Of a stretch of 64,000 bases of DNA, positions 32,641 to 62,629 are shown piece by piece. Numbering within the stretch: the first letter of the stretch is position 1; the number at the start of each line of letters is the position of its first letter. The notes beneath the pieces were generated by a model that searched no databases, was not told the origin of the DNA, and saw nothing but the letters and a program-made list of their open reading frames with translations. A program made the translations under genes and the position numbers. The DNA lies in the NCBI GenBank assembly GCA_965645245.1, contig OZ287067.1:1674001-1738000 (forward strand), given 5' to 3'. Source of the stretch: Massalongia carnosa (lineage: Eukaryota).

Positions 32641-33595
32641 TATCTTTACATAGTCTTATAGCCATAGTCATAGACCTATTCAACAACATGTTAAAGATAT
32701 AAAAAAAAGTGGACGACAAGGTATTAGCTTGGAAAATCAACAAGAAATTATTGCAAAAGTCACCACAGATCGACATGGAAGAGAAAAATCAACCCTTGAG
32801 ATAGCTGCGGAAGTAAAGGTATCTCAAAGTTTAGTAGCTCGCATACTAAATAAGTATGGATATAAAAAAGTAAAACCAATATAGAAGCCAGATCTTACTC
32901 CCGCTATGAAGAAATCCCGCCTAGAATTCGCAATCAAGTACAAAGATTAGACAATGGAGGATTGGTAACGTGTAATTTGGACAGATAAGACTAGTATAGT
33001 ATTGAGACGTTGTAATAGGGTAGGCCTAGTATGCGTTCGTTAAACGTAAGACTGGCCTATATGGCTATGTAGGATATGTATGTCACGGAATCGCTTCGCA
33101 CCCTCCCGCTTGTCCTGATCGGGTTAGTATTTAACAGGGCCCATTGCTGTGAAACCTCACCCATCGTGCTCAGGCGTTCTTCTGCCGCCCTCAGCGCACT
33201 ATCAATCTCCTACAATCCGTATTCCAATCTCAACGTCTCCACTATCCAGGCTTATGAGTGAGAGTGCTTCAGCACAGATAAAGGCGGGATAGGTCAAAGC
33301 AATCATGTTAAAGAAATTAGTATAGGAACAGAGATGGGGCAAGTCGAGAATAGGAGAGTTGAAAGCCATGGCTATAAAGTCTATGTGGTTTCCCAGGTGT
33401 TTAGAGCTCTTCATCGGACGTCTTGTGTATTATTCTCACCTTCTAGTTTTAGCATATCTAGATATCCGTTCTGCAAGATAGAGTCTTGTATCTCTCCAGC
33501 CCTCCCCTGACATTACGTCCGATCCATATTTTTTGTGTTTTTCAAAGCACTATTCTTCCTTTCCCTTTTCATTTTTTGCCTATAGATAATCAGTC

Positions 33596-34833
33596 ATGTC
33601 AAACCAAGATCAAGGACAACCTATGCCCGAGCAGCCCATTGAAAGCACAGATGCACAGCTTGCCTACGTGCAGGCCAACCCCCTTCCATTCCTTCAAGAA
33701 ATGGAGAGATTGCAAAACCAAATAGCAAAATTGGAACAGGAAGCCCAAGCACGACAAGCCTCCACCATCGTTACACCACCTTCCACGTCTTCCCCTTCTT
33801 CCTCTCTCAGTCCCGAGTTCCTTACTTCGATCGTGGCCGCCGTAACAGCTGCTATGTCCAAGAACCTCTCCACAGACAAACCGGCCAAGTCAGAAAAGCT
33901 GCCGGACATTGCCGAATACGACGGCAACATGGACAATCTCGATTCATGGGAACAGAGTCTGATACAGAGGATGCATGTGAACCATGACCGCTATCCTACA
34001 GAGAACGAAAAGATAACTTATGCCGAATCCCGACTTACCATCGGAAAAAAGCACACAACTTGATGAACAGGTATAGAACGGATGGCTTGTGCGCGCTGAC
34101 AAGTCTAAAAGATTGGCGAATGAAATTGCGCCAGGCATGTGGCAATCGCTTTGAAGAAGAAGACGCACGCACCTATCTTCGTGACACCCTCAAACAGGGT
34201 ACGCTAAGTTTCGAAGAATACTATAACCTCTTCACACAGAAGAAAGAACGATCGGGAATGGAAGATGCCTCTCTAATCGACGCCATGCGATCAAATGTCA
34301 ACTACGCCACACAGGCAGCCGCAATCTCGTGGCGAAAAACAGATGGGTCCAGGCCCGTTACGTTTGACGATCATGTGCAGATGTGGTCCGACACCGACTG
34401 GGACCTGAGGCAGTTAAAACATCGCCATTCTCGCACCACCCCTGCTGCCAATGCCAGCAATTCTCCGACCACTAGACGAGGAAACGCACCTGCCACGACC
34501 AGCACCTCCAACACGACCACACGCATCACCCCGGCCGTCACCACACCTGCTGCCCCTGTCGCCGCTGCCGGCGGCGATCCCATGGATCTGAGTTCAGCAA
34601 TGGCCGCCGTTCGAGGCCATAAGTTGACGGATCCAGGAGTCCGTAAGATCTGTGATGACTGGAAGCTATGCTTCTATTGTCGACGTCAACATCCGGGTAC
34701 CATTGGTGACTGCCCGATTCGAAAGACAACCGCGGTTCGCTCCCTTGTCCTATATGAGGGATCATCAAATGCACAATCAACGCCGATATCAACGTCACAG
34801 ATATCGAAGGTCCAGGAGGTGGAAAAAGCTTAG
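33596..34833 (+). CDS. gag: Gypsy Gag (family B), split by a 1-bp deletion in an A run near 34045
   Basis: ORFs 33596-34063 and 34060-34833 are homologous to family A Gag (KLPDI.EYDG, YAESRLTI, PMDLSSAM). Confidence 0.9.
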
Positions 34834-37800
34834 TCTCTGCGCATAGTCGCGCGCAGAGACAACCAGATTTCTTGATTTCTTCTTGCCTGCTGTCCACATC
34901 GTTTACACCGCCGCTCATGTCTAGCAATCGTTTTTCGGCGGCGTCTGCTCTTACTCTTTTTGAAACTGATGAGACATTTAGAGATAGTCATATGGTTATC
35001 TCTTGTATATTACGTCGTTTTCAAAACAGAATAAAAGCTTTGATTCTTGTGGACAGTGGTGCATCTGGATATTCCTTTATTGATCAAGATTTCGCGCGTT
35101 TTCATAACTTCCCCTTACACCAATTGAAATATCCTAGACGACTTTCCGGCTTCGATGGCCAGCCAGCATTGACTGGCAACATAACTCACATCGCCGAAGT
35201 TACCATGGACCTAAATGGGCATGTAGAAAAGCTCTTTCTTTATGTAACAGGATTAAGACATTACCCCATTGTTTTGGGCCACCCATGGCTTCGCAGACAC
35301 GGAGTCATTACAAACTTTTCCAACAACACCTTGTCCCTATCGTCCCCCTTTTGCCTTGCACACTGCTGTCCTTCACCTGTAATGGTGCAATCAGCCACCA
35401 CGAAAGAAGAAGAATTCCTTATGCCTGCCGAAAGTCAGAAGGTATGGCAATCAGAAGAAACAGCTCTGCAGACCAGTCAACCCGAGCTCTCCATCTTTGA
35501 ATATCAAAAAGAAGATGGCCCAAGCCGAATACTCACCGCCATTCAGAGAGGCACAACTCCGAAAATCAGACCACGATCACAAAGCTATGTACGTGTCAGA
35601 CCCCAATCAGTTCGGACACTCAGTCCAATCCAGAAACCCAATCAGACTCAGATATCCAGCTCAGTTCAGACAATCAACTCAACTCAGACATCCTGCAGCA
35701 ATTCGTCACAAATTTGCGAAGTCAGCGCAGTAACTTTCGATCGCCTTGCTAGAAAGAAAAATCACGAGATATTTAGTATCTCACTTCATGAAATCGATCG
35801 CTTTTTAGGAATAAAAGCACATCCCAGTCCCAGTCCCAGTCATTCCGACCCTAGCTCATCCATTAGCCTAATAGCGATGCAGGCCTTTCCACCATTGAAT
35901 CCGAAGGCCTGCCCTAGCGATAAGGATATGCATATGACCATCTGCAAAATGAATAAGGAGCTAACCTTAGAAACATCCGTAACTCAAGAAGAGCTTGAAG
36001 CCATTCGGGAACGAAAGAACGTTGACCCGAGCACCATCTTACCGAAACAATATCACGAATTCCTAGACGTTTTTTCTAGAAAAGAATCTGAAGTGCTTCC
36101 AGAACGCCGGCCCTACGACCATGCCATCAATTTGAAAGATGGCTTCCAACCTCCAAATCAAGCGTTATACGGCATGAGCCGCGACGAAATAGAAGAACTC
36201 CGTCGGTATTTAGACGATAATTTGGCCAAGGGGTTCATTCGTGCCAGCCGTTCGCATGCGACGTCTCCTGTCATGTTCGTGAAAAAGCCCGGAGGGGGCC
36301 TTCGCTTCTGTGTTGATTACAGAGGCCTGAATGCCGTCACCATCAAGAATAGATATCCGTTGCCATTGATAGCCGAGACCTTGAATCGCTTGTCCAGAGC
36401 TAAAATATTTACTAAATTAGATATAATAGCAGCCTTTAATCGCCTACGCATAAAGGAAGGCGACGAAGAACTCACCGCATTCCGCACAAGATTTGGTCTA
36501 TTTGAGTACCTGGTAATGCCTTTCGGGATGTGTAATGGACCCGCCTCTTTTCAGCACTTTATCAACGATACTCTGCGAGAGTATCTGGACGACTTTTGCA
36601 CCGCATATTTGGATGACATTCTGATATACAGTGACGTTGAATCAGAGCACGAGATTCACATCAAAAGAATTCTGATCAAACTGCGTGAGGCAGGCCTTCA
36701 AGCAGACATCACTAAATGCGCTTTTCATGTGAAAGAAGTTTCATATCTAGGTCTAATCGTGACTACAGAGGGGATAAAAATGGACCCTGCCAAAGTCGAA
36801 ACTGTTATTAATTGGCCCACTCCCCAAAACGTGAAAGACGTACAGAGCTTCTTAGGGTTTGCGAACTTTTACAGACGATTCATTCTGAGGTTTAGCATGA
36901 TTGCTGGCCCATTAACCAACCTCACACGAAAAGACGTGAAATTTTTATGGACTGATAAATGTCAGCAAGCTTTCGACACTATGAAGAGAACCTTCACCTC
37001 AGACGTAGTCTTATTGCACTTCGATCCAGACAAGCCAATTATCGTGGAGACAGACGCCTCTGATTATATATCCGCAGGAATTCTTTCGCAATATGACAAG
37101 AACAGTGTTCTAAGACCTATTGCTTACTTTTCCAAGAAACACAATCCGGCGGAATGTAATTATGAAATCTATGATAAGGAGTTAATGGCAATCGTTCGGG
37201 CTTTCGAAGAATGGAGACCCGAATTGGAGGGTTCCGCTCACCCAATCAATGTAATCACGGATCACAAAAATCTAGAATATTTCACGTCTTCCAAGCAATT
37301 GAGCCGCCGTCAAGCCCGCTGGAGCGAGTTCTTATCCCGATTTGATTATAAAATAATCTATCGCCCTGGAAAAGCAGGTGGGAAACCAGACGCCCTAACA
37401 AGGAGATCAGGAGATCTCCCTAAAGAAGGAGATGAAACAGACGAACGCCGACAATTTCAACATCAAACTGTCATCAAATCGCATAATATAAATGAAGGAG
37501 TTGCCCGAGACCTGAATTTATGCCCTGCTATAAGATTAGCACCCGCTTTCCTAGAACAAGAAGTCATAAGGCTAGCACCTGCGTTTTTAGAACAGGAACA
37601 CGAACTCGATGAATCCGAAAATCTAGGCAACGAAGATGATAATCATACTGACGAACCTCAACTCGATCCAGATTCAGATCAGATTGCCTCTGACAATGAC
37701 CCGATGGATATCCCTACCGACGAGCTTTGGAATCAAGCCATTCAAAGAGATCACTTTGCCCCGAAAATTCTAATAATGCTGCAAAACGGAACCAGATATC

Positions 37801-39266
37801 ACAGCGGAATTCAGTTGGCTGAATGCGAAGAGAGGGATGGTGTTCTTTACTTCCGAAATCGACGATATGTACCAAAATCAGACAGATTGAGACTCACGAT
37901 TCTGCAATTAGCCCACGATAGTGTGGTAGGTGGCCATCCAGGACGTGCGAAATGCTTCGAGATTATCGGCCGCTCCTATTGGTGGCCCAGTATGCATAAG
38001 ACCATTCAGCAATTCGTACGAAACTGCCATGTGTGTAAACGGTCTAAACCATCGCGGGAAAGATATCAAGGATGGTTGCGACCGTTGCCTCCGCCAGAAC
38101 GCCGCTGGCGGGACGTATCCATGGATTATGTCGGTCCTCTCCCCGTAAGTACCTTTATGGGAGTCACCTATCGCTACATTCTTGTATTCGTGGATCGATT
38201 ATCCAAACAAAAGCATTACGCACCTACCATAACGATGGAAGTCGAAGAAGCCGCAACAGCTTTCTATTGGTATGTATGGAAACACCATGGCCTGCCTGAT
38301 GTTCTAGTTTCTGATCGTGGATCCCAATTCGTATCGGACTTCTGGCAAACATTGTGCAAACGACTAAAGATTGATGCTCGTTTATCAACCAGTTATCATC
38401 CTGAAACAGATTGTCAAACGGAAAGAGCAAATGCGTCAATGGAGCATTACCTTAGGGCTTATGTGAATTATATGCAGGATGATTGGGTCGAATTTCTTCC
38501 TGGCGCTGAATTCGCTGCCAATAACATTGATTCATCTAGCACTCTGGCATCGCCATTTTTAGCAAATTCAGGGCAACACCCCCGCATGGGCTTTGAACCT
38601 GCAGAACCTCTACCGGAAAATATATCGACCCAGGCCCGGGCAAATCTGATTGCTGCTGATAAATTCGCTAACAGGATGCAGAAATTAGATTCTCACCTGC
38701 GTGACGAAATGCTAATTGCCCAAGCCATATATGAATCCAACGTCAACGCAAATCGTCGTCCCTGCCCTCGTTATTCTGTCGGAGATATGGTCTGGTTAAA
38801 CACAAAGAATATCCAGACTGCCAGACCTACGGTGAAATTGGACGACAGAAATATAGGACCATATCGGGTGAATCGTGTCTTCCCAAACAATCCTTTAATC
38901 GTACAGTTGGAACTCCCAGAGACTGTCAAGATTCATCCTGTTTTCCATGTCAATCTCTTGCAACACGACCCTGCCGACCCTTTGCCCGGTCACCACCCAG
39001 CACCGCGTGATCCTGTTATCGCAGAAGACGGGCAACGGGAATGGTATGTAAACAGCATTCTGAACTCAAAATACGATCGCCGTTATCAGCCGCCTCTGTT
39101 GCAGTATTTCGTTAATTGGGAAGGACATACCCCCTACTTGGGAACCATTCAACTTCCTAACTAATTGTCAGCAAGCCTTAGACGACTTTCATTCTGCTTA
39201 CCCTGCCGCCGCCGGACCACACATCACCCCATGTACAACTCCCTGCTGTCGTTGCCAAGAAATTTA
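34821..39266 (+). CDS. pol: Gypsy Pol (family B) with chromodomain; +1 insertion near 39130
   Basis: LVDSGA, YLDD, ETDASD, HHCC, DDE, GPY, chromodomain. The tail TWEPFNFLTNC..CRCQEI* continues in the other frame. Confidence 0.94.
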
Positions 39267-40278
39267 GTCAACTCGCAGGAGCTCGTTCTTGAAGAGGGGA
39301 GCTACAGTCACGGAATCGCTTCGCACCCTCCCGCTTATCCTGATCGGGTTAGTATTTAACAGGGCCTATTGCTGTGAAACTTCACCCATCGTGCTCAGGC
39401 GTTCTTCTGCCGCCCTCAGCGCACTATTAATCTCCTATAATCCGTATTCCAATCTCAACGTCTCCACTATCCAGGCTTATGAGTGAGAGTGCTTCAGCAC
39501 AGATAAAGGCGGGATAGGTCAAAGCAACCATGTTAAGGAAATTAGTATAGGAACAGAGATAGGGCAAGTCGAGAATAGGAGAGTTGAAAGCCATGGCTAT
39601 AAAGTCTATGTGGTTTCCCAGGTGTTTAGAGCTCTTCATCGGACGTCTTGTGTATTATTCTCACCTTCTAGTTTTAGCATATCTAGATATCCGTTCTGCA
39701 AGATAGAGTCTTGTATCTCTCCAGCCCTCCCCTGACAATGTAAAGCCAAAACAACTACTAAGATAATAAGGTCCCGCCTAACCCAGTTAGGCATAGTGTA
39801 GGGACTTAACTTATTATAGTGGTATTCTTCTAGTACGATTGATGACGCTGAAAGTCCTTGCTAGCGTACATGAGACGTGTATTAGTGTTTATCAGCTTAT
39901 AAGGGGAATACAATACTAAAATAGTCTAGAAAATCTCGAATTGCTTCTGTTCTCTTTGTCAAAAAGACAGTACTACTATATCTGATATTCAGTAGAAGGT
40001 ATTAATTATCATCATTATCATGCCTAATATACAGAGCAATAGTCTCACGATTACACAAAGAATACAGGCTTAGCGCTTATAGAATACGGAATTGCGGCGA
40101 AAACTGTGCAAGCAGTAACTGGAGCCTCCACAAGATCGATTTCAGCTCTCAAAATCAAAGCACGATAGCGTGGATATGATCTAGCTGTATCTCTTGTTTT
40201 AGAAGTAGAATCGTTCAGGACGACCTAAAAAGGCTACACCGGAGGTAGAGTAAGCTATATTGAATAATGTAGTATAAG

Positions 40279-42857: not shown

Positions 42858-45155
42858 ATTTCTCAACCTATTTACATTATATCTATTGATTGACCCTTTC
42901 AAAATAAAGCTATTCAAAATCAAAGGCTGAAATTTATCTATCCAGCTTTCGGCCTTTTTATGTACCAAGCCAAACCGTTTAGCTATCGCTTTTCTATAGA
43001 GAAATATTTTCTTTTGTCTAGCCGTCTCAGCACGCTTTTAACGACCCTCCTCCCTTTCCATCTCTTCTTGGGTACGATGTAGGTGATTGTGTCTTATATC
43101 TCGAACGGTAACGATTCCTCCCTTCTAAACAACGGTACCAGTAAGCTTTTTCGGGGCCCTTTTAGCTAATGCAGCTATGTGTGTTGCTTGCAATTCGCGT
43201 TGCGTCAATTCTAGTAAATTAGCGTTTGCAACCGACCCTTTGATAAAACGTCGCATTCTTCCTAGAGTAATTTCATTATTATCATTCATTTGCTGAATAA
43301 TGTTTTTCCCTTCCTTAGTAACGTCTTTGGACATTCTGGGGGTATGAGGTAGGATTATTGTCTCCGAAGATAATATTGGTAGTAGTAGTAATGCCGGATT
43401 TAAAGCAGGAATTTTGGTCAAGACTACCTCCGGATTGTAAGTTATCAACACAGTTTTTCCCAGGCTGATTTAATAGAAGATAATTTGAATGCATTCGTAC
43501 AAAATTAATTAAATGCAGCTAGAAAATCTAGACAATTGAAGTCAACGTCACCCAACCGAATAGCGTTGTCAACCGCTTCAGCATAATAATATTTTATTAG
43601 CTGAAAAACACTAACGTCCAATGGCAGCGTCAAATTTGTTGAACAGGGGGGGGTAATCTGAATAAACAGATCTTATTTTCTTTCGAATATTCCCAAAATT
43701 AATACTTTAATAAGATCTATATCCATCCAACAAAAGAAGCCTAATCGCTCCTTTTGAACATTTTTTGAATGAGCATTAAAATGCTTTAACTATTCTAATG
43801 CTAGACAATCATTCGAATAGTCGCTATCGCTTATAGTCAACGAGATATCATCTTTCAAATTATTTAGTAAGGCCCATTTGTGAAGTATGATGACCCCTTT
43901 TAAAATCAAAAAAGATGGAACGCTTCCGCCAACTCTATTGATACAATCGACCGAAGTTATATAGTCTCGATTTGTCATGGAATTACCTCGCACCTCCTAC
44001 GTTTCCCGATCGGGTTAGTATTTAGCAGGCTCTCTTGCCGTGAAACCTGCCCCGCATATTGAATGGAACCGTGGCCCGTTATTCCGAACTATCCTGAAAC
44101 CTCACCCCATGTGTTCAGACGTTCTTCCGCTGCCGTCAGTGCACTCCCAAACTCCTATATCCCGAATCCAATCTCAACGTCTCTACTATCCAGGCCTACG
44201 ACTGGGATTGCCCAGCAGAGAGAGATTGCTTCGGCATAGGGAAAGGCGGAACAGGTCAAAGCGATCATGGTTAGGAAATTAGAACAGGAACAGAGATAAG
44301 GGCAAGTCAAGTATAGGGGAGTTGGAAGCCATGGCTATAAAACCTATGTGGTTTCTCAGGTGTTTGGAGCTCTTCGTCGGACGTCTTGTATACAATCCCT
44401 AGACCTAGCTTTCTAAATAGTAACTCTTGCATATCTCCCTATCCGGACCTTGTCCGTGACATTACGTCCGACCTACATTCAAGTGTTTCTTTGTTTTCTC
44501 TTTCCCCTATAACGATTGTTAATCATGTCTTTTCAAGAAGAAACCGCAAATCTGCCTCAGGAACCTGAGTTAGCCCAAAAGGAGCGAGAACATGTCAGCA
44601 ATAACCCGGACGAGTTCATCGCTGCCTATCGAGACCTGGAATGACAATTAGCTGAGATTCGAAACGCGGTTCCTCTAGCTATTAATCAAACGTCTCCTAA
44701 CCCATTATTAGCAACCCCGTCATCAACTCCTTCTTCTTCCGTTCCGAGCTCCCAGCTGGCCGCCAGTATAGAACAGCTAATGAGATGACCAGCGTTTCCG
44801 CCCAGGTCCGAGAAACTTCCTGACATACCGGAGTATGACGGTGACGAGGACAAACTCGATGCTTGGGAACAGAATCTAATTCAAAAAATACACATTAACC
44901 ATGACCGATACTTTTCCGATGAGGCCAAGATAGCTTATGCGGAGAGTAGACTCACCATCAGCAAGCGAGCTCATCTGCTCATGACTCCCTACCGGATAGA
45001 TGGCTTATGCCGCCTAACCTCTTTTTCGGACTGGAGAGCGAATCTTCGTCTGGCCTGTGGTAACCCCTTCGAGCAAGAGGATGCCCGTAAATATTTGCGA
45101 GACACCCTGAAACAGGGTAACCTAATCTTTGAGGAATATTATAACCTTTTCTCTC

Positions 45156-45698
45156 AGTCATGAAACGGCTTCGAACCAAAAGGACCTCGGCCTTATCCCT
45201 AGTTGCCCCTCTATCCTGTCCCTACCTACCGTACCGCAGGTTCATTGGAGCTGCCGCGGATTCATTGGACCTAACGCAGGTTCATTGGACCTAACGCAGG
45301 TTTATTGGACCTAACGCAGGTTCATTGGAACTACCGCGGGTTCACTGGACCTACCGCAGGTTCATTAGACCTACCACAGCTTTATTGGTCAGTACGCGCT
45401 GTTCCAACCTTTCTCGATGCGGTTAGATCGAGTACGGCTCCGCCTCCGATCTTCGAAACCATAATTACCCGGTCCCAATTAGGTGTCTTCGTATTAACTT
45501 AGGAAAAGGAGATAAATAGGAGAAATCGAAGATTAAGGAAACAAAGGGGTAAGGAGGTAAGGAACAGATATAAAAGAAGGGGTCGAGTCTCGAAAGTTCT
45601 GGCTCCTTGTCCGACGTCTTGAATAGCCAATCTAGCCTAGCTGTAGCTATAGACTCAGTTAATTATTAAGCTTGACAATCCAATCCAGTCCCTTGACA
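45156..45698 (+). mobile_element. Solo LTR in gag, with a 20-bp tandem array (CGCAGGTTCATTGGACCTAA, ~7 copies)
   Basis: AGTCA..TGACA ends, TSD CTCTC/CTCTT. Removing it restores gag. Confidence 0.85.
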
Positions 45699-48600
45699 CT
45701 CTTAGAAGAAGGAATGATCTAAAATGGAAGACGCCTCCCTTATCGATGCGATAAAGGCCAACATCAACTATTCCACCCAAACAGCGGCCATCAATTATCG
45801 AGTCCCCGGAACCAATCAGGAGCCTGTCACCTTCGACGAACATGTTGCAATGTGGGCCCAAACGGATTAAAAAATTCGTCAAATCAGGCATATCTCGCCA
45901 CGCAAAGCCTCTGGAGCCTCAATTAGCAACTCCTCAACTAAAAAGGGGGCATCCGTCGCCACCACTACTGCCGTTGTCAGAAGTCCTGCCCCCCGCTCCT
46001 CCACCATCGTCGTCGCTCCAGCCGTCACCCCTGCTGCGGTTCCTTCGCTTCCCGTAGGGGATCCGATGGACCTCAGCTCCGCCATAGCCGCTGTGAAAGG
46101 CCAAAGCCTGAAAGTCCCCGGAGTCAAGGAAATCTGCAAGCAATGGAGACAATGCTTCTACTGTAAGCAATCGCACCCTGGGAAGACCGCAATCGACTTT
46201 CCCAACAAGAAGGACCCGTCTACTATTCGGTCTCGTGTCCTTTACAACGACTCCGACGCCTCTAACGATGCAGCGGGAAAAGCCTGAGCCCCGTATTCAG
46301 TCGCATACGAGGGCTTCGAAAGCCTGATTTATTGATTTCTGCATGTCTTTTTTCTGCATCATTTTCACCCCCCCTAATGTCCAACGCTCGTTTTTCTGCA
46401 GCGTCCGCTTTGACCTTGTTTGAAAACAATGAAACTTTCAAAGATAGCCATATTGTTGTCTCATGTATATTACGTCGTCTGCAAGCAAGGATAAGAGCTT
46501 TAATTCTCATTGACTCTGGTGCATCAGGTTACTTATTGATCTATAAAGAATTCGCGCACCTTCATCAATTCCCCCTTCACCCCCTTAAATACCCTCGCCG
46601 ACTCCTAGGTTTCGATGGTCAGCCTGCTCTGACCGGAAACATCACCCATGTGGCAGAAGTAACCATGGATCTCAATAGACACATAGAGAAACTGTTCCTA
46701 TATGTGACCGGATTAAGACATTACCCCATCGTCCTAGGACACCCATGGCTGCGTCGACATGGCGCTATCACTAACTTCACCAATAATACCCTGTCATTAT
46801 CTTCCCTATTTTGCCTAGCACATTGCTGTCCCGGCCCCGTTATGGTTCATTCAACTATCGCCGAGGAAGAACAGTTCCTTATACCTGCCGAAAGTCAGAA
46901 GGTATGGTAGACTAAAGATCAAGAAACAATTCTGCAATCTAGTCAAACAGAACCATCGAAATTTGACTTTCAGGTTGAAGACAGGCCCAGTCGAATCCTA
47001 ACCGCCATGCAAAAAGGCGTCTCCCCTAGGATCCGATATCGGTCCGGGAGCTACGTTCGTTTAGCACCCCGCCTACATACCTCAAACCCCCTGCTCAGTA
47101 AACTAACCGCGGTTGAATCCGCACCAACCAACTCAGCCTAGCTTCGAGTCAGTAAGGTGAGCGCCGGCACGTTCGACCGCCTCGCAAGACAGAAGGACCA
47201 CGAGATATTCAGTATCTCCCTCCAAGAAATAGACCGGTTCTTAGGTATATAATCGCCTTTAAAACCCCCTAGCCCTAGCTCCAGGTCATCTATTAAGTTA
47301 ATAGCAACCCACGTTTTCCCCCCATTTAACACTAAGGCCTGTCTAAGTGATAAGGACACGCACCTAGCCATTTGCAGAATGCACAATGAACTTTCTCTAG
47401 AAACCTCCGTCACTCAAGAAGAACTTGAGCACGCTCGGCAGCAAAAGAACGTTGACCCGGCACCTCTGCTTCCAAAGCAATACCACGACTACCTAGATGT
47501 CTTTTCCAGAAAGGAGTCCGATAAACTACCGGAACACCGCTCCCATGATCACGCCATCGTCTTAAAAGAAGGTTTTCAACCACTTAATTAAGCTCTTCAC
47601 GGGATGAGACGTGATGAGATCCAGGAACTTCGTCGTTATCTGATGAGAATCTAACAAAAGGATTCAGTCGATCTAGCCGCTCACATACAGCCTCCCCGGT
47701 TATGTTTGTTAAGAAGCCCGGCGAAGGACTTCGATTCTGCGTCGACTACCGAGGACTAAACGCTGTCACCATAAAAGTTCTTTATCAAATACCTCTAATC
47801 ACCGAGACTCTCAACCGTTTTTGTAAAGCCAAGATATTTACCAAGTTGGATATTATATCAGCATTCAATCGCCTGAGAATCAAAGAGGGAGACGAAGAAC
47901 TTACTGCTTTCCGGACTCGTTTCGGTCTCTACGAATATCTTCTCATGCCTTTCGGTCTGTGCAACGGACCTGCCTCATTTTAACATTTTATCAATAACAT
48001 CCTAAGGGAATACCTAGATAGATTCTGCACCGCGTATCTAGATGACATCCTTATCTATAGTGATGACGAAATCGAACATGACCTATATATAAAATAAGTC
48101 CTTGTCAAACTCAGAGAGGCCGAACTCCAAGCGGACATCACCAAGTGCGCCTTCGGAGTCACCGAGGTCCCCTATTTGGGTCTCATCGTCACTACTAAGG
48201 GAGTCAAGATGGATCCTGCCAAGATCGATACCGTCATCAATTGGCCTACTCCCGTTAATATTGGGGATGTTCAAAGCTTTCTAGGATTCGCCAATTTCTA
48301 CAGGCGTTTCGTATTGGGGTTCAGTAAAATAGCCTCGCCGTTGACGAACCTAACCAAGAAGGGAACGAAATTCTCCTGGACTAGCGATTGTCAACAAGCC
48401 TTCAATACGATGAAAAAAGCAATTACCTCCGATCTTATTCTCATGCACTTTGATCCAGACAAGAAAATCGTAGTCGAGACGGACGCCTCCGACTTTGTAT
48501 CGGCGGGTATCCTATCGCAATATGATGAAAAAGATATCTTGCGTCCCGTCGCACACTTCTCAAAAAAGCATAACTCTGCCGAGTGTAACTATGAGATCTA

Positions 48601-49619
48601 TGACAAAGAACTCATGTCCATAGTTCGAGCTTTCGAGGAATGGAGACCTGAACTAGAAGGCTCCGCTCAACCAATCGATGTTATTTCAGACCATAAGAAC
48701 CTGGAATATTTCACCTATACCAAGCTTTTGAGTCGGCGCCAGACCCGATGGAGTAAGTTTCTATCTCGATTCGATTATAAGATAGTCTACCGACCTGGGA
48801 AAGCCGGCGGTACACCGGATGCACTAACTCGACGGTCAGGAAACCTCCCTGAAGAAGGGGATGAAACCGATGAGCGGAACTCATTTCATTATCAGACGAT
48901 ACTGAAAACGCATAACCTAGACGACGGAGTAGCCGAGAGCTTCAATTCAACAGTGGTTGGAACCTCCCCAGACCCCATAGTGCTCGCTCCTGCTATTCTT
49001 AATCAAGAACAAGATCTTGACGAGGATGATGACACAGAGACGGATCATGAAGAACCCCAACTAGATTTAGTTACTGATCAGCTAAACCCCGACGATGACC
49101 CAATTGGCGTGGCCACTCAGGACCTTTGGAACCGGGCCCTGGATAGGGATAAGTTTTCACCCCGTGTTCTAGAAATACTTCGAAACGGATCGAGATATTA
49201 TAGCGGCATCAACAAGCAGAGTGCGAAAGACAAAAATAGGATTTTGTACTTCAGAAATCGACAATATGTATCCAAATCAGATAGCCTTCGCCTAAGAATC
49301 CTACAACTCGCTCACAATAGTCTCGCAGGTAGACACCTAGGCCGTGCCAAATGTTATGAACTCATCAGTCGCTCCTATTGGTGGCCTAGCATGCACAAAA
49401 CGGTACAAAGATTCGTCAGAAACTGCTATGTCTGCAAAAGAGCCGAACCCTCCCGTGAACGTTATCAGGGGTGGCTTAGGCCCTTATCTTCACCTGAGCG
49501 ACGCTGGCGCGATGTCGCTATAGATTATGTCGTACCCCTCTCGGCCAGCACCTTCATGGGAATCACCTATTAGTACTTTCTAGTTTTCATAGATCGCCTA
49601 ACCAAGATACGCCATCTGG

Positions 49620-49888
49620 TATAGCACGTCGACATAGATAGAAATCTAATAGGGACTATGTACGAAAACTGGTAAGGTGAAGAAAGAAAGCTATGTATAG
49701 ATCGTCGGTTAATAAACACTTATACCCGTGCTAAGCCTATTGTAGGTTTTCATCACCGTCGTTGAACTGCTCATACCACGCGTGTTAAAAATGTCGCTAC
49801 AAGCACTGCTAAATCCGTTTTCGGTTAGATAAGGTGAATAGCACTACGTCATGTGTTCCCTGAGGTTAGAGCGTTGTAATCCGTGACA
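49620..49888. mobile_element. Solo LTR (269 bp) in the integrase
   Basis: TSD TCTGG, TATAG..TGACA ends. Removing it restores RHLAPV. Confidence 0.85.
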
Positions 49889-51976
49889 TCTGGCTCCAGT
49901 CATATCCATGGAAGTCGAAGAAGCCGTAGATGCCTTCTATCAGAATGTATGGAAGCATCATGGCCTACCTGATATTCTCGTATCAGATCGAGGTTCGCAG
50001 TTCCTATCGGAACTATGGGAATTGCTGTGTAAGCGGCTAAAAATCGACACACGGTTGTCCACCGGATACCACCCGGAAACCATTGGCCAGACAGAACGAG
50101 CCAACGCCTCCATGGAGTATTACCTTAGAGCCTATGTCAACCATATGCAGGATGATTGGGCCAAGTGGCTACCAGGCGCTGAATTCGCGGCTAATAATAC
50201 GGACTCTTCCACAAATCATGCTTCGCAATTTCTAGCAAATTCTGGTCAACACCCCCGTATAGAATTCGAACCCTCCGAGCCTCTCCCGACGGACATTACC
50301 GCTCAAAGTCGAAATAATCTGATCGCAGCTAATAAGTTCGCGGACGGGATGAGAGACTTAGAAACTCATCTTCATGATAAAATGTTAATCGCTCAAGCCA
50401 TCTATGAATCCACTGCCAATGCAAACCGCCGACCATGCCCCCGCTATAAAGTGGGTGATATAGTATGGTTAAACACAAAGAATCGTCAAACAGCGAGACC
50501 CACCGTCAAGTTAGACAATCGAAAAATCGGACCCTATGCGGTCAGTCGAATTTTCTCAAACCCTCTAGTGATACAATTTGAGCTTCCTCCTGGTGTCAAG
50601 ATCCACCCAGTTTTTCATGCAAACCTTCTTCAGCATGAAGCAGATGACCCCCTTCCTGGCCAGCATCCCGCCCCTCGTGAACCCGTCGAAGCAGAAGACG
50701 GACAGCGAGAATGGTATGTGAACAGCATATTGAACTTCAAATACGACCGACGATTTCAACCTCCACTCCTTCAATATTTCGTTAACTGGGAAGGTCATAA
50801 TCCTACATGGGAACTTTTCAATTTCCTAACCAACTGTCAGCAAGCTCTAAACGAATATTATCAGGCTTACCACACAGCTACCTGACCATATCACACCCCT
50901 TGCAATCTACCCCGTTGCCGCTGCCAGGAATAGTAGCATCGCAGGAGCTCCGCCTTGAAGAGGGACCTACTGTTATGTAATTACCTAGCACCCTCCCACG
51001 TTTCCTGATCGGGGTAGTATTTAACAGGCTCTCCTGCCGTGAAACATGCCCTGCATGTTGAATGGAACCGTGGCCCGTTATTCCGAACTATCCTGAAACC
51101 TCGCCCCATGTGTTCAGACGTTTTTACGCTGCCTTCAGTGCACTCCCAAACTCCTATATCCCGAATCCAATCTCAACGTCTCTACTATCCAAGCCTACGA
51201 CTGGGATTGCCCAGCAGAGAGAGATTGCTTCGGTATGGAGAAAGGCGGAACAGGTCAAAGCGATCATGGTTAGGAAATTAGAACAGGAACAGAGATGAGG
51301 GCAAGTCAAGAATAGGGGAGTTGGAAGCCATGGCTATAAAACCTATGTGGTTTCTCAGGTGTTTGGAGCTCTTCGTCGGGCGTCTTGTATAATATCCCTA
51401 GACCTAGCTTTCTAAATAGTAACTCTTGTATATCTCCCTATCTGGATCTTGTCCGTTACACGATTATCTGGATCAGCGATCATAATTCGTTTATGTGATA
51501 ATAGTATCACCACCAAATGGGTTAGCCCACAGCTAACTCGAAAGCCTATCTCATCTATATTCAATATATGATTTGGAGTCATACCAAGAAGGGCTACAGT
51601 CGATTGAAAAAAAGGGAAATAAGTTTGAATATCAGTAAAATTGTGAGCGTTTTTCCTTTCGACTGCTAATGGCTTGCCCTTTTGCATGAAAAATTAGGGA
51701 TTTCTTTTCACGAATCGTCCAGTCCAGCATTTTCCTACGCGGGTGAGAGAAGATGAAGACGAGGAAGGATGTTGGCAATTGCAACAAATAATCAGCTATA
51801 CCGCGAATCAATGACAATCTCATTGATAATTTAATATGATAAAGAAATTCAATATACCCCTTCAGGGCTAGTTCTAGTGAAGCAGATAGCCTCATATTGA
51901 CTGCTTATCGCTTGTTATATCTATGTAGTCTTCTTTGAAATAGACAAAGTAAAATATCGAATTCTTTGGCAAAGGC

Positions 51977-52146
51977 TTTAACGGTTCGACCAAGCTTAGT
52001 GCGGACGGCAGGATCTACAGCGAATATAGCAGGAGTCCCAGTCATAGTAGAATATAGCTTAGTCTGCGGACTAGGTATTGTGCATTTTGGTCGAGAGGAC
52101 AGGTGGCGCAATGGTAGAAATCTATTTATTATCTCGCTTCATCACA
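51977..52146 (+). mobile_element. Solo LTR of the TRIM family
   Basis: Reverse-complement match to the 171-bp LTRs at 60022-62196. Confidence 0.85.
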
Positions 52147-54449: not shown

Positions 54450-55648
54450 TGTAACGGTTCGACCATGCGTAGTGTGGACGGCAGGACCTACAGCGAATAC
54501 AACAGGAGTCCCAGTTATAGTAGAATAGAGCTTAGTCTGCAGACTAAATTGTACCTTTTGGTCTGGAGGACAGGTGGCGCATATAATACGGATAGCGCTA
54601 GAAGGATACGTGATCGCCTACGGCGGTTGCGGAATTAACTAGCATGAGCCAGGCCGTAGTACTTATTCGCATAGCCGTCGAGGCTGACATGACGCCACCT
54701 TGCTACACAACTCCGAACTAGTTGTTACTACGTTCTAGACTGCTTACAGATTAAACACCTGTCGAGGCCGTGGTGGTAGATTGCTATAGAGTGAGGCGAA
54801 CTCATGTGGACAAGCCGTGAACTCTATATGGAATCTACTGGCCTACTCGGAGCTACTCGATCTCTTGTTGGATCAAGAGTTGTAGCAGGAGGCACGGCTA
54901 GCTGGACGCAGCTTGAGCTCGGCCTCCCCGGTGTAAACTTCAGCTTCAACCTTTATTGCTACGTTCGTAGTGATGTCGGCTGAATGAACCTTTATGACCT
55001 TGTGGTCTAGACCTTGTGTCTAGAGGCAGGTCCGCAGTGTAGATAGAGATTCAGTCGGACGTAACCTTCCATCGCTACGTTAGTAGTGGTGACGGCGAAA
55101 TGAAGCTACATAGCCTCGGCGTGTAGACTTTATGTTTAGAGGCAGGCTAGCAATATAGTGAGGGATCTAGCCGGAGGTAGAAGTGTTCTACCTTGCAAGG
55201 GAAGGTCTAGAAGGCTGCTCGAGGCTGACTAGATAATCCAGCGAATGCCGAGTTCGTAGATGGATCCTGAGGGATAGTTAGATATAAGGCGATAAGGTCA
55301 GAAGTAGGTTGCAAGGCTCCTAAGGTTCCAAGGCTCCAAAGGCTATAGGCTTGGGGTGAGTAGGATAAATAACAGAACGAATCCTGTAGTATTCGTTAGC
55401 AATTAGTCTTTATTCTATGAACAACCTACGTTTGGGTCTCGGACGAGATCTCTTGGTCTGCGCACTTCCACATCCATTAGTTCTTTGGATCACATATACT
55501 CTCGGAGACCAGCACGTAGTAGCTATCTTCCACCTCTTACGCTGAGCATTTCCCCTTTCGAGATCAGTGTCGCTCGTGATTAGCTTCTGGTCTCGTAGCC
55601 TATTACAGAGCAATGGTAGAAATATATTCACTATCTCGTTTCGTCACA
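54450..55648 (+). mobile_element. TRIM-family solo LTR split by a 1-kb LTR
   Basis: Halves 54450-54581 and 55613-55648, TSD TAAAG. Confidence 0.85.
54582..55607. mobile_element. Solo LTR (~1026 bp)
   Basis: TATAAT..ATTACA ends, TSD GCGCA/GAGCA, internal diverged ~118-bp duplication. Confidence 0.75.
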
Positions 55649-58979: not shown

Positions 58980-60021
58980 GAATCATGGGTACCATGGATT
59001 ATTACAAATGCATTGCGTGCAGAAAGGGATGGGTGAACGAGAAGACAAGAAATCTTCGTATGAAGTAGTCAGATGCTATGCTTTCTAGATATCCAAATGC
59101 AGAAGACTAGATACAAGTTCGATTTAGCGACGAATTGCACTTTAGATGGGGACCTCAGGGCAAAGTATGCATCATACGAAGATTAGGTGAACGTTATTGT
59201 TATGATTGTATTCAAGAAGTAGATGAACCAGACGAGGCCGTCAAGAAGAGACATTATTGTTGGGCTGCTGCAGGTCATGACTTCAAGTCCGATATCTACT
59301 TTTACAAAGTTCCAGGAAACTTCAATGGAAAGATAAGTCAACGAGTCTATATCGACTCTATATTGGAGCCTATTGTAAAGCCCTAGATTGAAGCAAAACA
59401 CGATTTCGTCTTAGAAGAAGACGGTAATTCTGGATATAGACTAGGCAAATCAAACATTGTACGTGCTTGGAAGCAGAACAACGATCTGAAGCACTATTCA
59501 ACTGTCAATATTTACCTGATTTGGCCCCCATAGAAAATTTCTGGCAGGCCCCGAAGCAATATTTAAAAGAATATCCTCATTGGTATGACGATACGACCAA
59601 GGGGCTAGTTATGAGGGGTAGGCGAACGTTTCCCAGGCATTTATTAATGAACGGGTGTCTACTACGCCACATAGATTTAGAGCTGTTTTGGATTGTGAGG
59701 GTAAAATGACTGGTGATTGAGAAGATTGAATGAATTTGATGACTGGTTGTTGAAATAGTGATTATCCTATCATAATTGTATGGAAATTGCTTGTGTTTTG
59801 GTGGGGGGTTGAACCCGGTTAAATTTGGGTGTAGGTTTTTTTTGTCCCCCGCGTGACAGTATATTTCACGTATAATTTTTGCACATTCCATTTTTGGCTT
59901 TATCGATCTTCGTTGAAGGGCCGGTCAACAGATCATTGAAAAGAAGGGGAAAAACGTCTGGAATAGGATAATACCAAAGGTCCTGTTTCAGATTAATCAG
60001 AATAGGAAGTCTCGTATTATC

Positions 60022-60592
60022 TTTGACGAAGCTAGATAGTGAATAGATTTTTACTATTACGCCACCTGTCCTTCCCGACCAAAAGGCACAATACTTAGTA
60101 CGCAGACCAATCTCTATTCTACTATAACTGAGACTCCTGCTATGTTCGCTGTAGGTCCTGCCGTCCGCACTATGCTTGGTAGAACCGTTACACTACCGCC
60201 CGTCTAGCTGCGGCTAGCTCCTAGCCGCTTCCAGTTATAGTTAGCCCCGAAGAATGGGCTCTTCTTAGCGTACGGCCCTCGCCGATCCAACTTAGAAAGT
60301 TTTCATCCAACACTTTCCCGTTTCGTCTTAACTTCAGTCCGTCGAAGTAAGGCGAAAAAGCGAGGAACTCAGGTCAGGAATCGAACTCACGACTAGTACA
60401 CCGATTGATGACTAAGTATTCTGTGACGAAGCGAGATAGTGAATAGATTTCTACTATTGCGCCAACTGTCCTTCCCGACCAAACGGCACAATACTTAGTC
60501 CGCAGACTAAGCTCTATTCTACTATAACTGGGACTCCTGCTATATTCGCTGTAGGTCCTGCCGTCCGCACCACGCTTGGTCGAACCGTTACA
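60022..60592 (-). mobile_element. TRIM (miniature LTR retrotransposon), older copy
   Basis: 171-bp LTRs 60022-60192 and 60422-60592, 229-bp non-coding interior, TSD TTATC. Confidence 0.92.
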
Positions 60593-61625
60593 TTATCTTA
60601 CATTGCATTAAATCTATTTTTATTGAAAAAAGCAAATATTTTTATTATTATTTTCACCCATTGTAGTATCTGGTAAAGGGTTAAATCAGACTTACTGCCT
60701 TAGCGAGGAATGGTCTATTTTAACCCGATTAGGATTTATTTGACGCGTTATAGTCAAATAAATAGGGATAGGAAAGAAAGAGTCATTTGACCCGTAAACA
60801 GGTGTAAATTCTATTCTGACTATTACGTTCGTGGAACGTCAGAATAAATTATTTGGTGGCGATAAAAGGGATATTGTAAAGGAAAAAAACACTATGCTCA
60901 ATCTAAGGTTTAACCCGATAGGTCATAGACCAAATCGATTGATACCAATAACTCCCCCCCCAGGCCCCCCTCCGAAACATGTATGGGTCCCCCCTACTAC
61001 GCATCCGGGCCCCCCCCCCGAACCGACTCACCCGCGCCATCTTCAGTAGCGATAATTGGGAGCACCCCCCTAACAGTAGAGTCCACGGAGGCCATGGACT
61101 AAACGCGAGAATTTTCGTCCGCACCGTCTACACCCACCCCAAAAGCAAAATCTTTTGTCGCGTAATCTGGTAAATTCAGTACTAATCTGCCCATGCCATT
61201 ATTGAATTATGATATTCGACTTAGTCTACTAATTAAACGCAACAAAAGACGAATATTTGACGAACATACGATTGAAATTCAAGAAGTCATCAATCGAACA
61301 AAAATCGATTCAACTATTGAATACGGCAAAAAATGCATTATTGGAGTCATTCATACTAGATCAAAACCCCGAAACGGCTATATTTATTGATCACGTCATT
61401 TCTCTACTGGCAAAGAAATCGATCAAGCCTTAAGCAACGTTAGAAATGATTGATTGGAAATTGAATAGGGTGCTAGTACGTCGCGGAATAGGTTGGGTTG
61501 GGTTCGAGTTGGGTTATTGTTGGGTTGGGTTGGGTTCGGGTTGGGTTTTCATTGGGTTACCCAAATCACATGCTTAGTAATGGTAATCAATAACCTTGAC
61601 TTATCAACGTGGCGATCGGCGTTAG

Positions 61626-62196
61626 TGTGACGAAGCGAGATAGTGAATAGATTTCTACCATTGCGCCACCTGTCCTTCCCGACCAAAAGGCACAATACTT
61701 AGTCCGCAGACCAAGCTCTATTCTACTATAACTGGGTCTCCTGCTATGTTTGCTGTAGGTCCTGCCGTCCGCACCACGCTTGGTCGAACCGTTACACTAC
61801 CGCCCGTCTAGCTGCGGCTAGCCCCTAGCCGCTTCCAGTTATAGTTAGCCCCGAAGAATGGGCTCTTCATAGCGTACCGCCCTCGCTGATCCGACTTAGA
61901 GAGTTTTCATCCAACGCTTTCCCGTTTCGTCCTAGCTTCAGTCCGTCGAAGCAAGGCGAAAAAGCGAGGAACTCAGGTCAGGAATCGAACTCACGACTAG
62001 TACACCGATTGATGACTAAGTATTCTGTGACGAAGCGAGATAGTGAATAGATTTCTACCATTGCGCCACCTGTCCTTCCCGACCAAAAGGCACAATACTT
62101 AGTCCGCAGACCAAGCTCTATTCTACTATAACTGGGTCTCCTGCTATGTTTGCTGTAGGTCCTGCCGTCCGCACCACGCTTGGTCGAACCGTTACA
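61626..62196 (-). mobile_element. TRIM, young copy
   Basis: Apparently identical 171-bp LTRs 61626-61796 and 62026-62196, TSD GTTAG, PPT AGACGGGCGGTAG on the minus strand. Confidence 0.95.
61959..62075 (-). ncRNA. tRNA-like Pol III unit spanning the TRIM U5/PBS junction (predicted)
   Basis: A-box TGGCGCAATGG (62068-62058), B-box GAGTTCGATTCC (61992-61981), T5 (61963-61959); same layout in the 60022 copy. Confidence 0.5.
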
Positions 62197-62629
62197 GTTA
62201 GTATTTTATGTATTCTCAACTATACCATCTACTTACCACCAGGTATGCTCTTCCTGGTGGTTGGTTTTCTTATCGCACCAGTTCTGGCACCTGGTCCGGG
62301 TATTCTGTCGAGTGTTCGGTTTGGAATTCGCGTAGGTTTGCGCGTACGCTTGCGCGGAGTCTTCGGTGCCATACCTAAAAGCAAACAGGCAAGCAGACAG
62401 GTTATCAGTGGTCGCGCGTGGCAACTAGGTTAGGTTGGGTATGATTAGGTTCAGTATGACTAGGTTGGGTTGGCTAGTTTAGGGAGAATATGTATGCATG
62501 CGTTGGATTTAACTGAGTTTTTAGAACGTAAACGTAGTTATTAATGCTTTATCGCAGCATAATCTAGTCAATGAAGTTATATTCCTACAGCTATATCCTA
62601 TATATATATTCCAATATATACAATCCTCG

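Follow-up and report, generated by a model that had tools for sequence, protein, structure and literature searches.

A miniature LTR element and its copies in the window

The window, which is the whole stretch of 64,000 nucleotides analysed here, carries on its minus strand a non-coding element of 571 bp at 61626..62196, composed of a 5' LTR, a 229-nt internal region and a 3' LTR. The initial annotation called a TRIM at this locus, and its coordinates enclose exactly one such element. The published description of TRIMs (PMC6934838) sets a length below 1000 bp and terminal repeats of 100-250 bp, and both the total length (571 bp) and the 171-bp LTRs lie within these limits. No stop-to-stop frame of at least 150 aa overlaps the element. 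Its 5' LTR (62026..62196, TGTAAC...GTCACA) and 3' LTR (61626..61796), both on the minus strand and 171 bp long, are identical at 171 of 171 positions (100%), and the TSD CTAAC is found upstream at 62197..62201 and again downstream at 61621..61625. A polypurine-rich tract, AGACGGGCGGTAG (61797..61809, minus strand), adjoins the 3' LTR, as it does in the second copy of the family. Within the 5' LTR, U3 is placed at 62196..62105 (minus strand), with the U3/R border deduced from a self-complementary segment, and a TATA-like TATAGTA (62130..62124, minus strand) stands 26 nt before the putative RNA start. The internal region contains an invariant leader of 86 nt (61940..62025, minus strand), which includes the primer-binding site (PBS), small hairpins, a B-box-like string and a T5 run.

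The second TRIM copy (60022..60592, minus strand) shows 95% identity to the first, with LTRs that are about 91.5% alike and the TSD GATAA. Two solo LTRs of the same family lie on the plus strand. One of them (51977..52146) has about 90% identity and a mutated primer segment (ACTAGGTATT), and the other (54450..55648), flanked by the TSD TAAAG, is broken in two by an insert of 1028 bp (54582-55609) that lies within its A-box-like string. A BLAST search of the window with the TRIM as query (word size 7, E<=1) returned only its own copies and these solo LTRs.

An empty site provides evidence on the age of the first copy. Contigs of two public runs, two in X1 and one of 397 nt in X3, join position 61620 directly to 62197, thereby skipping 576 bases, which corresponds to the 571 bp of the element plus 5. 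Because this empty site is seen in contigs, the insertion of copy 1 is recent. The TRIM family has a high copy number and has been active recently in its host, which is probably a fungus associated with a lichen, and an abundant family with empty-site polymorphism could serve as a marker system.

Putative primer and primer-binding site

The PBS, AATACTTAGTC (62014..62024, minus strand), begins one base past the LTR end and is the exact reverse complement, at 11 of 11 nucleotides, of the LTR segment GACTAAGTATT (62094..62104, minus strand). This segment, the putative self-primer, is assumed to make up nt 1-11 of the element's RNA, where R would start. Among 20000 dinucleotide-shuffled LTRs, 4 attained an 11-nt complement to the PBS. 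The site lacks the TGG start that is typical of PBSs matching tRNA 3' ends and is complementary instead to the element's own LTR; the window holds 0 tRNA genes. Variation was assessed in run X1, from which 4266 contig pieces were placed on the window; the figures come from assembled contigs, which lose rare variants, and refer to variants at >=5% of depth. At this cut-off, no variants occur in the primer (0 of 11 positions) or in the PBS (0 of 11).

Predicted MFE folds close the primer:PBS duplex in a 91-nt RNA (62104..62014) as well as in a 170-nt RNA from 62104, and the predicted pair probabilities in RNAs starting at 62104 range from 0.76 to 0.95. The MFE fold of 62111..61955, which has 7 extra bases at the 5' side, does not contain this duplex and is no more stable than shuffled sequences (z = -0.80). 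The duplex is predicted only where the RNA begins at the primer. The MFE folds also contain a U5 hairpin of 12 bp (62034..62067, minus strand) between primer and PBS, and the A-box-like TGGCGCAATGG (62068..62058) forms the 5' arm of this predicted hairpin. Tf1 needs a U5-IR-like stem-loop between its primer and its PBS. Two variants in the hairpin, at 62059 (G.U to A-U) and at 62045 (G-C to G.U), keep its pairing. They were considered as covariation and rejected as weak, since transitions often preserve G.U/A-U pairing, and no covariation was found for the TRIM's own primer:PBS duplex or for its U5 hairpin.

Three Ty3/gypsy elements lie in the same window. Element A (13526..20190, minus strand) has 489-bp LTRs that are 99% alike and the TSD GAATG, element B (33081..39737, plus strand) has 431-bp LTRs and the TSD ATGTA, and element C (43973..51460, plus strand), a member of the family of A, has the TSD CGATT. 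The Ty3/gypsy elements of the window encode RT, RNase H and integrase together with Tf2-1-type SH3 domains. A self-priming layout and 5-bp TSDs are present in all three. In element A, GTCGGACGT in the LTR corresponds to TT-ACGTCCGAC after the LTR, and the primer/PBS pair of element B is ATCGGACGT/ACGTCCGAT. At the end of the duplex, one pair has changed in a compensatory way between the two families, being G..C in A/C and A..T in B. The LTR tips of the TRIM (TGTAACGG) and of the gypsy elements (TGTCACGG/TGTCATGG) are alike, and BLAST (word size 7, E<=1) detected no longer similarity between the TRIM and these three elements. Most likely, to judge from these sequence features, the 571-base gene-less element uses the end of its own transcript to start reverse transcription, like Tf1 of yeast.

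Box-like strings at the LTR border and the tRNA question

The initial annotation assigned to this locus a tRNA-like Pol III unit, possibly tRNA-derived, that is divided between LTR and leader, and the individual strings on which this view was built are indeed present on the minus strand. The A-box-like string GGACAGG-TGGCGCAATGG-TAG lies at 62075..62055 in U5, with its 11-mer at 62068..62058. The B-box-like string GTCGT-GAGTTCGATTCC-TGACC follows at 61997..61976, 65 nt past the A-box-like string and 34 nt outside the LTR, with GAGTTCGATTCC itself at 61981..61992 in the leader. After a further 17 nt comes the T5 run (61963..61959). Between the box-like strings, the LTR end at 62026 has TATTC (62049..62045) on one side and GAATA (62025..62021) on the other, and the arm TAGTCATC..GGTG.ACTAG follows. 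The split described in the initial annotation is likewise observed: the strings straddle the border between LTR and internal region, and both occur only in the 5' LTR plus leader. U5 additionally contains a T4 run at 62088..62085.

Measured against what we take to be the consensus forms, TRGCNNAGTGG and GGTTCGANTCC, the order of A box, B box and T run is present at the string level only, with one mismatch in each box; the B-box-like string is an exact match to the core GTTCGANTC. The statement that this layout is kept in copy 2 holds for the B-box-like string and T5, both of which are identical there. It does not hold for the A-box-like string, which is altered to two consensus mismatches and reads TTGGCGCAATAG in the 5' LTR and GGCGTAATAG in the 3' LTR, with AATAG in both. 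At one mismatch or fewer in each box, the A+B unit is therefore confined to copy 1, and the presence of AATAG in both LTRs of copy 2 is as expected if a source with AATAG still transposed. The real window contains 26 A-like and 6 B-like strings, and 2 of these 6 are the TRIM copies. An A-like and a B-like string (<=1 mismatch each, 20-100 nt apart) arose in 13 of 20000 dinucleotide-shuffled TRIMs and in 10 of 300 shuffled windows, and the unit that also includes T5 arose in 1 of 300 shuffled windows. The full unit is rare for one window, yet it is expected many times across a scan of many windows.

The comparison of the boxes with their flanks, proposed in the initial annotation as a check, leans against a tRNA-derived Pol III unit. 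The A-box-like string carries the variant at 62059, which reaches 10.8% of depth in X1 and by which a consensus G is lost. The B-box-like string is invariant, and so are the 74 other leader bases around it; it is thus no better conserved than its leader. At >=5% of depth in X1, variants occur at 0 of the 86 leader positions (62025..61940), compared with 4 of 143 in the remaining internal region. Between copies 1 and 2, the first 73 nt of the leader are identical, and 10 differences fall in the other 156 nt of the internal region. The T5 run is T4 in the sole covering X6 contig and in one X1 contig.

Descent from a tRNA finds no support in the searches, since the rough cloverleaf suggested for this region (62075..61968) is recognised by no tRNA model or finder (ARAGORN, Rfam). 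ARAGORN reported 0 tRNAs in the window, and the count stayed at 0 when introns were permitted at its default threshold. Rfam matched no tRNA, 5S or other relevant family in 59800-62500 at E<=10, and at the same threshold the 171 bases of 61940-62110 gave 0 matches to any family, including partial tRNA or SINE matches. The cloverleaf surfaces only when introns are combined with an 80% ARAGORN threshold, as 1 of 6 calls in 2.7 kb. Relaxed settings of this kind were rejected as evidence, with 6 calls (-ps80, introns), 10 calls (-ps70, no introns) and 20 calls (-ps60, introns) in the same 2.7 kb. Given the TRIM alone, ARAGORN took the primer:PBS duplex for an anticodon stem carrying a 66-nt "intron". 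By eye, 1 of 4 positions pairs in the D stem; of 5 positions in the T stem, 1 is Watson-Crick and 2 are G.U; and of 7 in the acceptor stem, 4 are Watson-Crick and 1 is G.U. Common descent of the split unit from a tRNA appears unlikely because the stretch between the boxes consists of the LTR end and the priming site, and a tRNA or SINE insertion would break this border. The tRNA-promoter look of the element is probably incidental.

The idea of the initial annotation amounts to a working promoter, with the A-box-like string of U5 and the B-box-like string of the leader acting as a split type-2 Pol III promoter or TFIIIC site that would yield an RNA of about 117 nt or a chromatin boundary. The proximity of both strings to consensus (<=1 mismatch each), their spacing of 65-66 nt, the T5 run behind them, the low frequency of such units in shuffled sequences and the lack of variation in the B-box-like string and the T5 run, both between the two copies and, at the stated cut-off, among X1 contigs, all argue for it, and TRIMs of the Pol III type, Cassandra and Helenus, are described (PMC10886601). 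Against this stand the missing tRNA-like fold and family match, the common A-box-like variant that removes a consensus G and is shared by the LTR pair of copy 2, the equal conservation of the 74 leader bases surrounding the B-box-like string, and the T4 in the sole covering X6 contig. The gap between the strings also exceeds the usual A-box to B-box spacing of 30-60 nt. Pol III terminates at T runs, and a transcript begun close to the A-box-like string would stop at T5, about 117 nt on and short of the 3' LTR. Such a short RNA would lack R and the primer and therefore could not be a transposition template. Taken together, the promoter reading is very improbable, and it is equally doubtful that full-length copies carry a TFIIIC/Pol III site split at the LTR border that solo LTRs do not have. 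Were such a site real, full copies would either nucleate boundaries bound by TFIIIC or give rise to a transcript of about 117 nt covering U5, PBS and leader, and this transcript could compete with the self-priming of the element or have a regulatory effect on it.

A passive origin of the strings is somewhat easier to accept, though still unlikely: the B-box-like string, the next bases and T5 would be what decay has left of the 3' part of a tRNA gene or tRNA-derived SINE that the parent element's leader had captured, a relic with no present promoter role, and the A-box-like string would be a coincidence. With GTTCGATTC taken for the T loop, T5 starts 7 nt past the tRNA 3' end, and in real tRNA genes a T run does occur soon after this end. 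The poor T stem is, however, not restored by simple transitions, Rfam at E<=10 returned no partial tRNA or SINE match in the 171 bases searched, and one B-like string in 571 bases is too common to call for a special origin, with 4 others in the window. The priming step itself could also be explained differently, if 62024..62014 paired with a host tRNA, or a fragment of one, that served as primer, in which case the match to the LTR would be accidental. Most fungal Helenus families are described as having PBSs complementary to tRNA anticodon loops (PMC10886601). Many fungal Helenus and copia elements are primed through the tRNA anticodon region. This idea must contend with the rarity of an 11-nt LTR complement by chance (4 in 20000), with the self-priming layout in 3 of 3 gypsy neighbours, including its compensatory change, and with a PBS that has no TGG start, and it is very improbable. 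The reading that best accommodates these observations, and that can be regarded as fairly probable, is that the TRIM replicates by Tf1-type self-priming and that its leader RNA contains the tRNA-promoter-like strings only incidentally.

Known systems and a proposed replication route

The closest parallel to the layout is found in Tf1, in which the RNA's initial 11 bases pair with the PBS and RNase H cuts between bases 11 and 12 (PMC7175516); Tj1 is a further self-priming element available for comparison (PMC4600332). As in the Tf1 type, the PBS of the TRIM is complementary to a segment of its own LTR, over 11 nt as in Tf1 itself (PMC7175516, PMC4600332), it adjoins the LTR end, and a predicted U5 stem-loop lies between primer and PBS. 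The 5-bp TSDs and the fungal host are also shared. Unlike these elements, the TRIM measures 571 bp and has neither gag nor pol, and its RNA start at 62104 is a predicted one. The TRIM would be a dependent derivative or parasite of the Tf1-type Ty3/gypsy group and not an autonomous member of it. It resembles other TRIMs in being non-coding and in having TSDs and solo LTRs. For TRIMs, self-priming has been raised as a possibility, in the account of bivalve TRIMs (PMC6934838).

The general idea behind the initial annotation, presented there as not known to have been described, has a precedent, because Helenus/TRIMp3 elements are TRIMs with tRNA-derived LTR sequence and include fungal members (PMC10886601). 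In Helenus, Ajax and Cassandra, as described there, the entire small-RNA-derived sequence with both boxes lies within the LTR, and these families were found by tRNA, SINE or 5S similarity (PMC10886601). Reports of fungal Helenus elements come from Pucciniales and from a few Agaricomycetes, and these elements are linked to copia helpers (PMC10886601). The present TRIM is similar to Helenus and Cassandra as a small non-autonomous LTR element with Pol III box-like strings, and fungal Helenus also has 5-bp TSDs (PMC10886601). In contrast to both, its LTR does not include the B-box-like string, and Rfam at E<=10 detects no similarity to tRNA or 5S. It differs from Helenus further in the T5 run after the B-box-like string, which would keep Pol III from producing a complete template, and in its affiliation: Helenus is copia-linked, whereas the neighbours and the priming type of the TRIM point to Ty3/gypsy. 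The element does not show the defining features of Helenus (Kojima 2024).

On the self-priming reading, transcription by Pol II would start in the 5' LTR near G62104, with TATAGTA 26 nt upstream. The first 11 nt of the RNA would then fold back on the complementary 11 nt beginning one base past U5, as the sequence and the predicted folds suggest. Having no gag or pol, the TRIM must borrow RT/RNase H and integrase. By analogy with Tf1, the RNase H of a Ty3/gypsy helper may cut after nucleotide 11, and its reverse transcriptase may extend the primer. The plus strand would be primed by the polypurine tract, and the 5-bp duplication would be made by the helper integrase. In this scheme, the A-box-like string would serve as an arm of the U5 hairpin, at the place where Tf1 requires its U5-IR-like stem-loop. 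The 86-nt leader is probably kept as a cis requirement for packaging, dimerisation or priming. Element A is a possible helper, and its choice is a guess because the gypsy elements and the TRIM share LTR tips only and no parent was found.

If self-priming is true, tRNA-independent priming is not confined to full-size Tf1-like elements, and their miniature parasites would inherit it too. TRIM finders that require a tRNA PBS would overlook such families. With about 400 unique bases, the TRIM could be a natural minimal substrate for mapping the needs of self-priming and packaging. A caution also follows for sequence annotation, as box-like strings in a constrained retroelement leader can mimic a promoter without tRNA descent.

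Searches of the window and of contigs revealed no parent element with the LTR of the TRIM, and searches for more copies or a parent, with two patterns each, gave 0 matches in metagenome, prokaryote genome and viral contigs. A contig of run X7 (1774 nt) matches 61626-61934 and then continues into unlike sequence; it may be a longer relative or the parent.

Structure, copies and mobility of the TRIM

Sequence reading identifies copy 1 as a complete miniature LTR retrotransposon on the minus strand (62196..61626). Its LTRs, 171 bp each (TGTAAC...GTCACA), are identical at 171/171 positions and enclose an internal region of 229 nt, the 3' end of which is the purine-rich AGACGGGCGGTAG. CTAAC, a 5-bp duplication, is present at both flanks, and no stop-to-stop frame of at least 150 aa overlaps the element, confirming the coordinates and the TRIM assignment of the initial annotation. 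Copy 1 fits the TRIM definition, the tRNA PBS excepted. The related copy 2 (60592..60022; TSD GATAA) is 95% identical to it, with LTRs of its own that are about 91.5% alike. On the plus strand, a solo LTR is located at 51977-52146, and another, with TSD TAAAG, is split into 54450-54581 and 55610-55648. The 1028-bp insert between these parts (54582-55609) interrupts the LTR exactly within the string that resembles an A-box (TGGCGCAATGG in copy 1, U5, 62068..62058, minus strand), with an apparent 3-bp duplication, GCA; no terminal repeats were seen in it, and no further copies within the window. Just upstream of the copy 1 polypurine tract lies a near-perfect palindrome, GCGGCTAGGGGCTAGCCGC (61819-61837, minus strand), retained in copy 2 with one central change. 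Degenerate (GGGTT)n-like runs occur on either side of copy 1 (61491-61565 and 62428-62459).

The window is partly matched by 13 of the 17 public sequencing runs listed, with one sample labelled 'lichen metagenome', and contigs from four of these runs (X1, X3, X6 and X7) were mapped to 61500-62320. X1 provided 4266 contig pieces there, with element coverage far above flank coverage, and contig loose ends at the LTR borders lead into many differing A/T-rich flanks. Position 61620 is joined straight to 62197 in two contigs of X1 and one of X3, the latter being 397 nt long with 102 and 124 bases either side. The 576 bases left out correspond to the element (571 bp) and a single TSD of 5 bp, so these contigs represent an empty site; in combination with the identical LTRs, this shows that copy 1 inserted recently. 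The element is a real, abundant and recently mobile TRIM. In X7, which derives from another organism, a 1774-nt contig matches 61626-61934, corresponding to the 3' LTR and 138 nt of the internal region, and then continues into unlike sequence. This contig may represent a longer relative or parent of the TRIM, and its break at about 61934/61935 may mark the junction of the TRIM leader and tail.

Probable self-priming in the TRIM and in neighbouring Ty3/gypsy elements

A TGG-type tRNA PBS, sought downstream of the copy 1 5' LTR, is absent. The 11-base PBS AATACTTAGTC (62024..62014) begins one base past the LTR and is the exact reverse complement of the intra-LTR GACTAAGTATT (62104..62094), the putative primer and RNA start. 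A complement as long at that place arose in only 4 of 20000 dinucleotide-shuffled LTRs, and 62104 itself is preceded, at a distance of 26 nt, by a TATA-like TATAGTA. The 11-bp duplex is closed in the predicted fold of the 91-nt RNA from 62104 to 62014 (minimum energy -28.5 kcal/mol) and likewise in that of a 170-nt RNA reaching 61935 (pair probabilities 0.76-0.95); when the fold is begun 7 bases further upstream, the duplex is absent and stability is unremarkable (z = -0.80). Between primer and PBS, a 12-bp hairpin (62067..62034) is predicted, with the A-box-like string as its 5' arm.

This arrangement, a PBS complementary to a segment of the element's own LTR, is that of Tf1, and most likely the TRIM self-primes in the same manner. 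Apart from lacking any coding capacity, copy 1 agrees with Tf1-type priming. Tf1 reportedly requires a U5-IR-like stem-loop between primer and PBS, as Lin and Levin are said to have found in 1998. For bivalve TRIMs, self-priming is raised merely as a possibility in the available part of PMC6934838.

The Ty3/gypsy elements of the window, A (13526-20190), B (33081-39737) and C (43973-51460), belong to two families about 71% alike. They contain RT, RNase H, integrase and a Tf2-1-type SH3 domain, with long pol frames of 1464 and 1468 aa, LTR pairs that are 94-99% alike and 5-bp TSDs; Pfam at E<=0.001 detected no chromodomain in them. Elements A and C carry GTCGGACGT within the LTR and TT-ACGTCCGAC following it. 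Element B shares only about 71% identity with A, and its primer/PBS pair, ATCGGACGT / ACGTCCGAT, differs from that of A and C by a compensatory change at the duplex end. All three share the Tf1-like layout of copy 1, which suggests that self-priming is the local rule. They are possible helpers of the TRIM, with which they have only similar LTR tips in common (TGTAACGG in the TRIM vs TGTCACGG/TGTCATGG).

Box-like strings and the Pol III reading

The initial annotation had proposed a split tRNA-like Pol III unit, and every string quoted for it is indeed present. The B-box-like GAGTTCGATTCC (61992..61981, minus strand) lies in the internal region, 34 nt beyond the LTR end, and T5 occupies 61963..61959 (minus strand). 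A scan of both window strands with the consensus forms TRGCNNAGTGG (A) and GGTTCGANTCC (B), at most 1 mismatch each, yielded 26 A-like strings, 6 B-like strings and exactly one A-then-B unit 20-100 nt apart, that of copy 1. The layout was said to be kept in copy 2. This holds for the first 73 internal bases, which are identical, all 10 differences being in the other 156, but not for the A-box-like string, which in the 5' LTR reads TTGGCGCAATAG, outside the mismatch limit, so that the scan missed this copy. By chance, an A+B unit arose in 13/20000 shuffled TRIMs and 10/300 shuffled windows, and an A+B+T5 unit in 1/300 shuffled windows; such co-occurrence is uncommon per window, yet many cases are expected across a large scan. 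An exact GGTTCGAATCC is found at 14713 (+), antisense within the pol region of element A, and a one-mismatch form at the corresponding place in element C (50272, -), indicating that B-box-like strings arise by chance in the window.

Regarding tRNA likeness, ARAGORN reported 0 tRNAs in the window and 0 in 59800-62500 with introns up to 120 nt. Rfam at E<=10 gave just three weak snoRNA-type chance matches, all outside the region in question, and no match of any kind on 61940-62110. At 80% of its threshold, ARAGORN did call the cloverleaf of the initial annotation (62075..61968), among a total of 6 such calls over 2.7 kb; on the TRIM alone, it interpreted the primer:PBS duplex as an 'anticodon stem' having an intron of 66 nt. 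Read manually, the cloverleaf pairs 1/4 in the D stem, 1 Watson-Crick plus 2 G.U of 5 in the T stem, and 4 Watson-Crick plus 1 G.U of 7 in the acceptor stem. The rough cloverleaf described earlier is thus poorly paired and unrecognised by Rfam or by ARAGORN at its default threshold. The GAATA of its TATTC/GAATA stem and its 'TAGT-CATC' arm both overlap the PBS, and the B-box-like string sits in the leader, behind the PBS.

Conservation was examined in X1 contigs with the two LTRs merged, a position being variable when another letter or an indel reached at least 5% of depth. Variable positions numbered 12/171 in the whole LTR (8/92 in U3, 4/79 in R-U5), 0/11 in the primer and 1/11 in the A-box-like string. 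The leader (62025..61940), containing the PBS, B-box-like string and T5, had 0/86, and the remaining internal region 4/143. At the overall 16/400, about 3.4 variable sites are expected in the leader (Poisson chance of zero about 0.03); just 0.5 are expected in the 12-nt B-box-like string, and the lack of variation there is uninformative by itself. In the comparison with neighbouring bases that the initial annotation had set as a test, the boxes are no better conserved; the whole leader is conserved, in line with the differences between copies 1 and 2. The A-box-like variant at 62059 (10.8% of depth) is a G-to-A change (element strand) that gives AATAG, a form common to both copy 2 LTRs. Transposition by a source RNA already carrying AATAG would be expected to leave this pattern; parallel mutation of the two repeats is a possible alternative. 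In the predicted hairpin, a G.U pair becomes A-U through the change at 62059 and a G-C pair becomes G.U through that at 62045; pairing is retained in both cases, which lends the hairpin slight support. T5 is T4 in the sole X6 contig covering the site, and a 40-base LTR deletion that takes out the A-box-like string is seen in a single X1 contig and a single X3 contig.

A tRNA-type Pol III function of the split boxes, either producing a short RNA or binding TFIIIC, is very improbable. We infer that the U5/PBS border could not have stayed functional had a tRNA gene or SINE been inserted across it, which favours chance or convergence over descent as the origin of the split layout. If Pol III initiated near the A-box-like string, its transcript would end at T5 after about 117 nt and, lacking the primer and R, would be neither copyable nor mobile. 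A tRNA-derived Pol III unit in the TRIM is not supported. The initial annotation was aware of no earlier description, but TRIMs with tRNA-derived LTR sequence are on record: PMC10886601 names them Helenus, unites them with Cassandra and Ajax under TRIMp3, and reports them from Pucciniales, a few Agaricomycetes, animals and Selaginella. The TRIM described here lacks the defining features of Helenus: it has no detectable tRNA similarity, its B-box-like string lies beyond the LTR end, and its T run would block a full Pol III template.

Other features of the window

Between the two solo LTRs lies a decayed Tc1/mariner-type transposase remnant (53233-53580, minus strand; HTH_Tnp_Tc3_2, E 3.5e-05, below the Pfam cut-off), to which a 250-bp stretch at 40597-40847 is related (86% identical). 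Three tandem repeats (23 bp at 58209-58300, 33 bp at 58584-58706 and about 59 bp at 57316-57637) are located at the right end of the window, which is rich in TEs. A 496-bp inverted duplicate, 99% alike, is present at 31539-32034 and 58415-58910. An assembly gap of 200 N (12555-12754) falls within the frame scanned as an HRQ1-type helicase (9271-12774).
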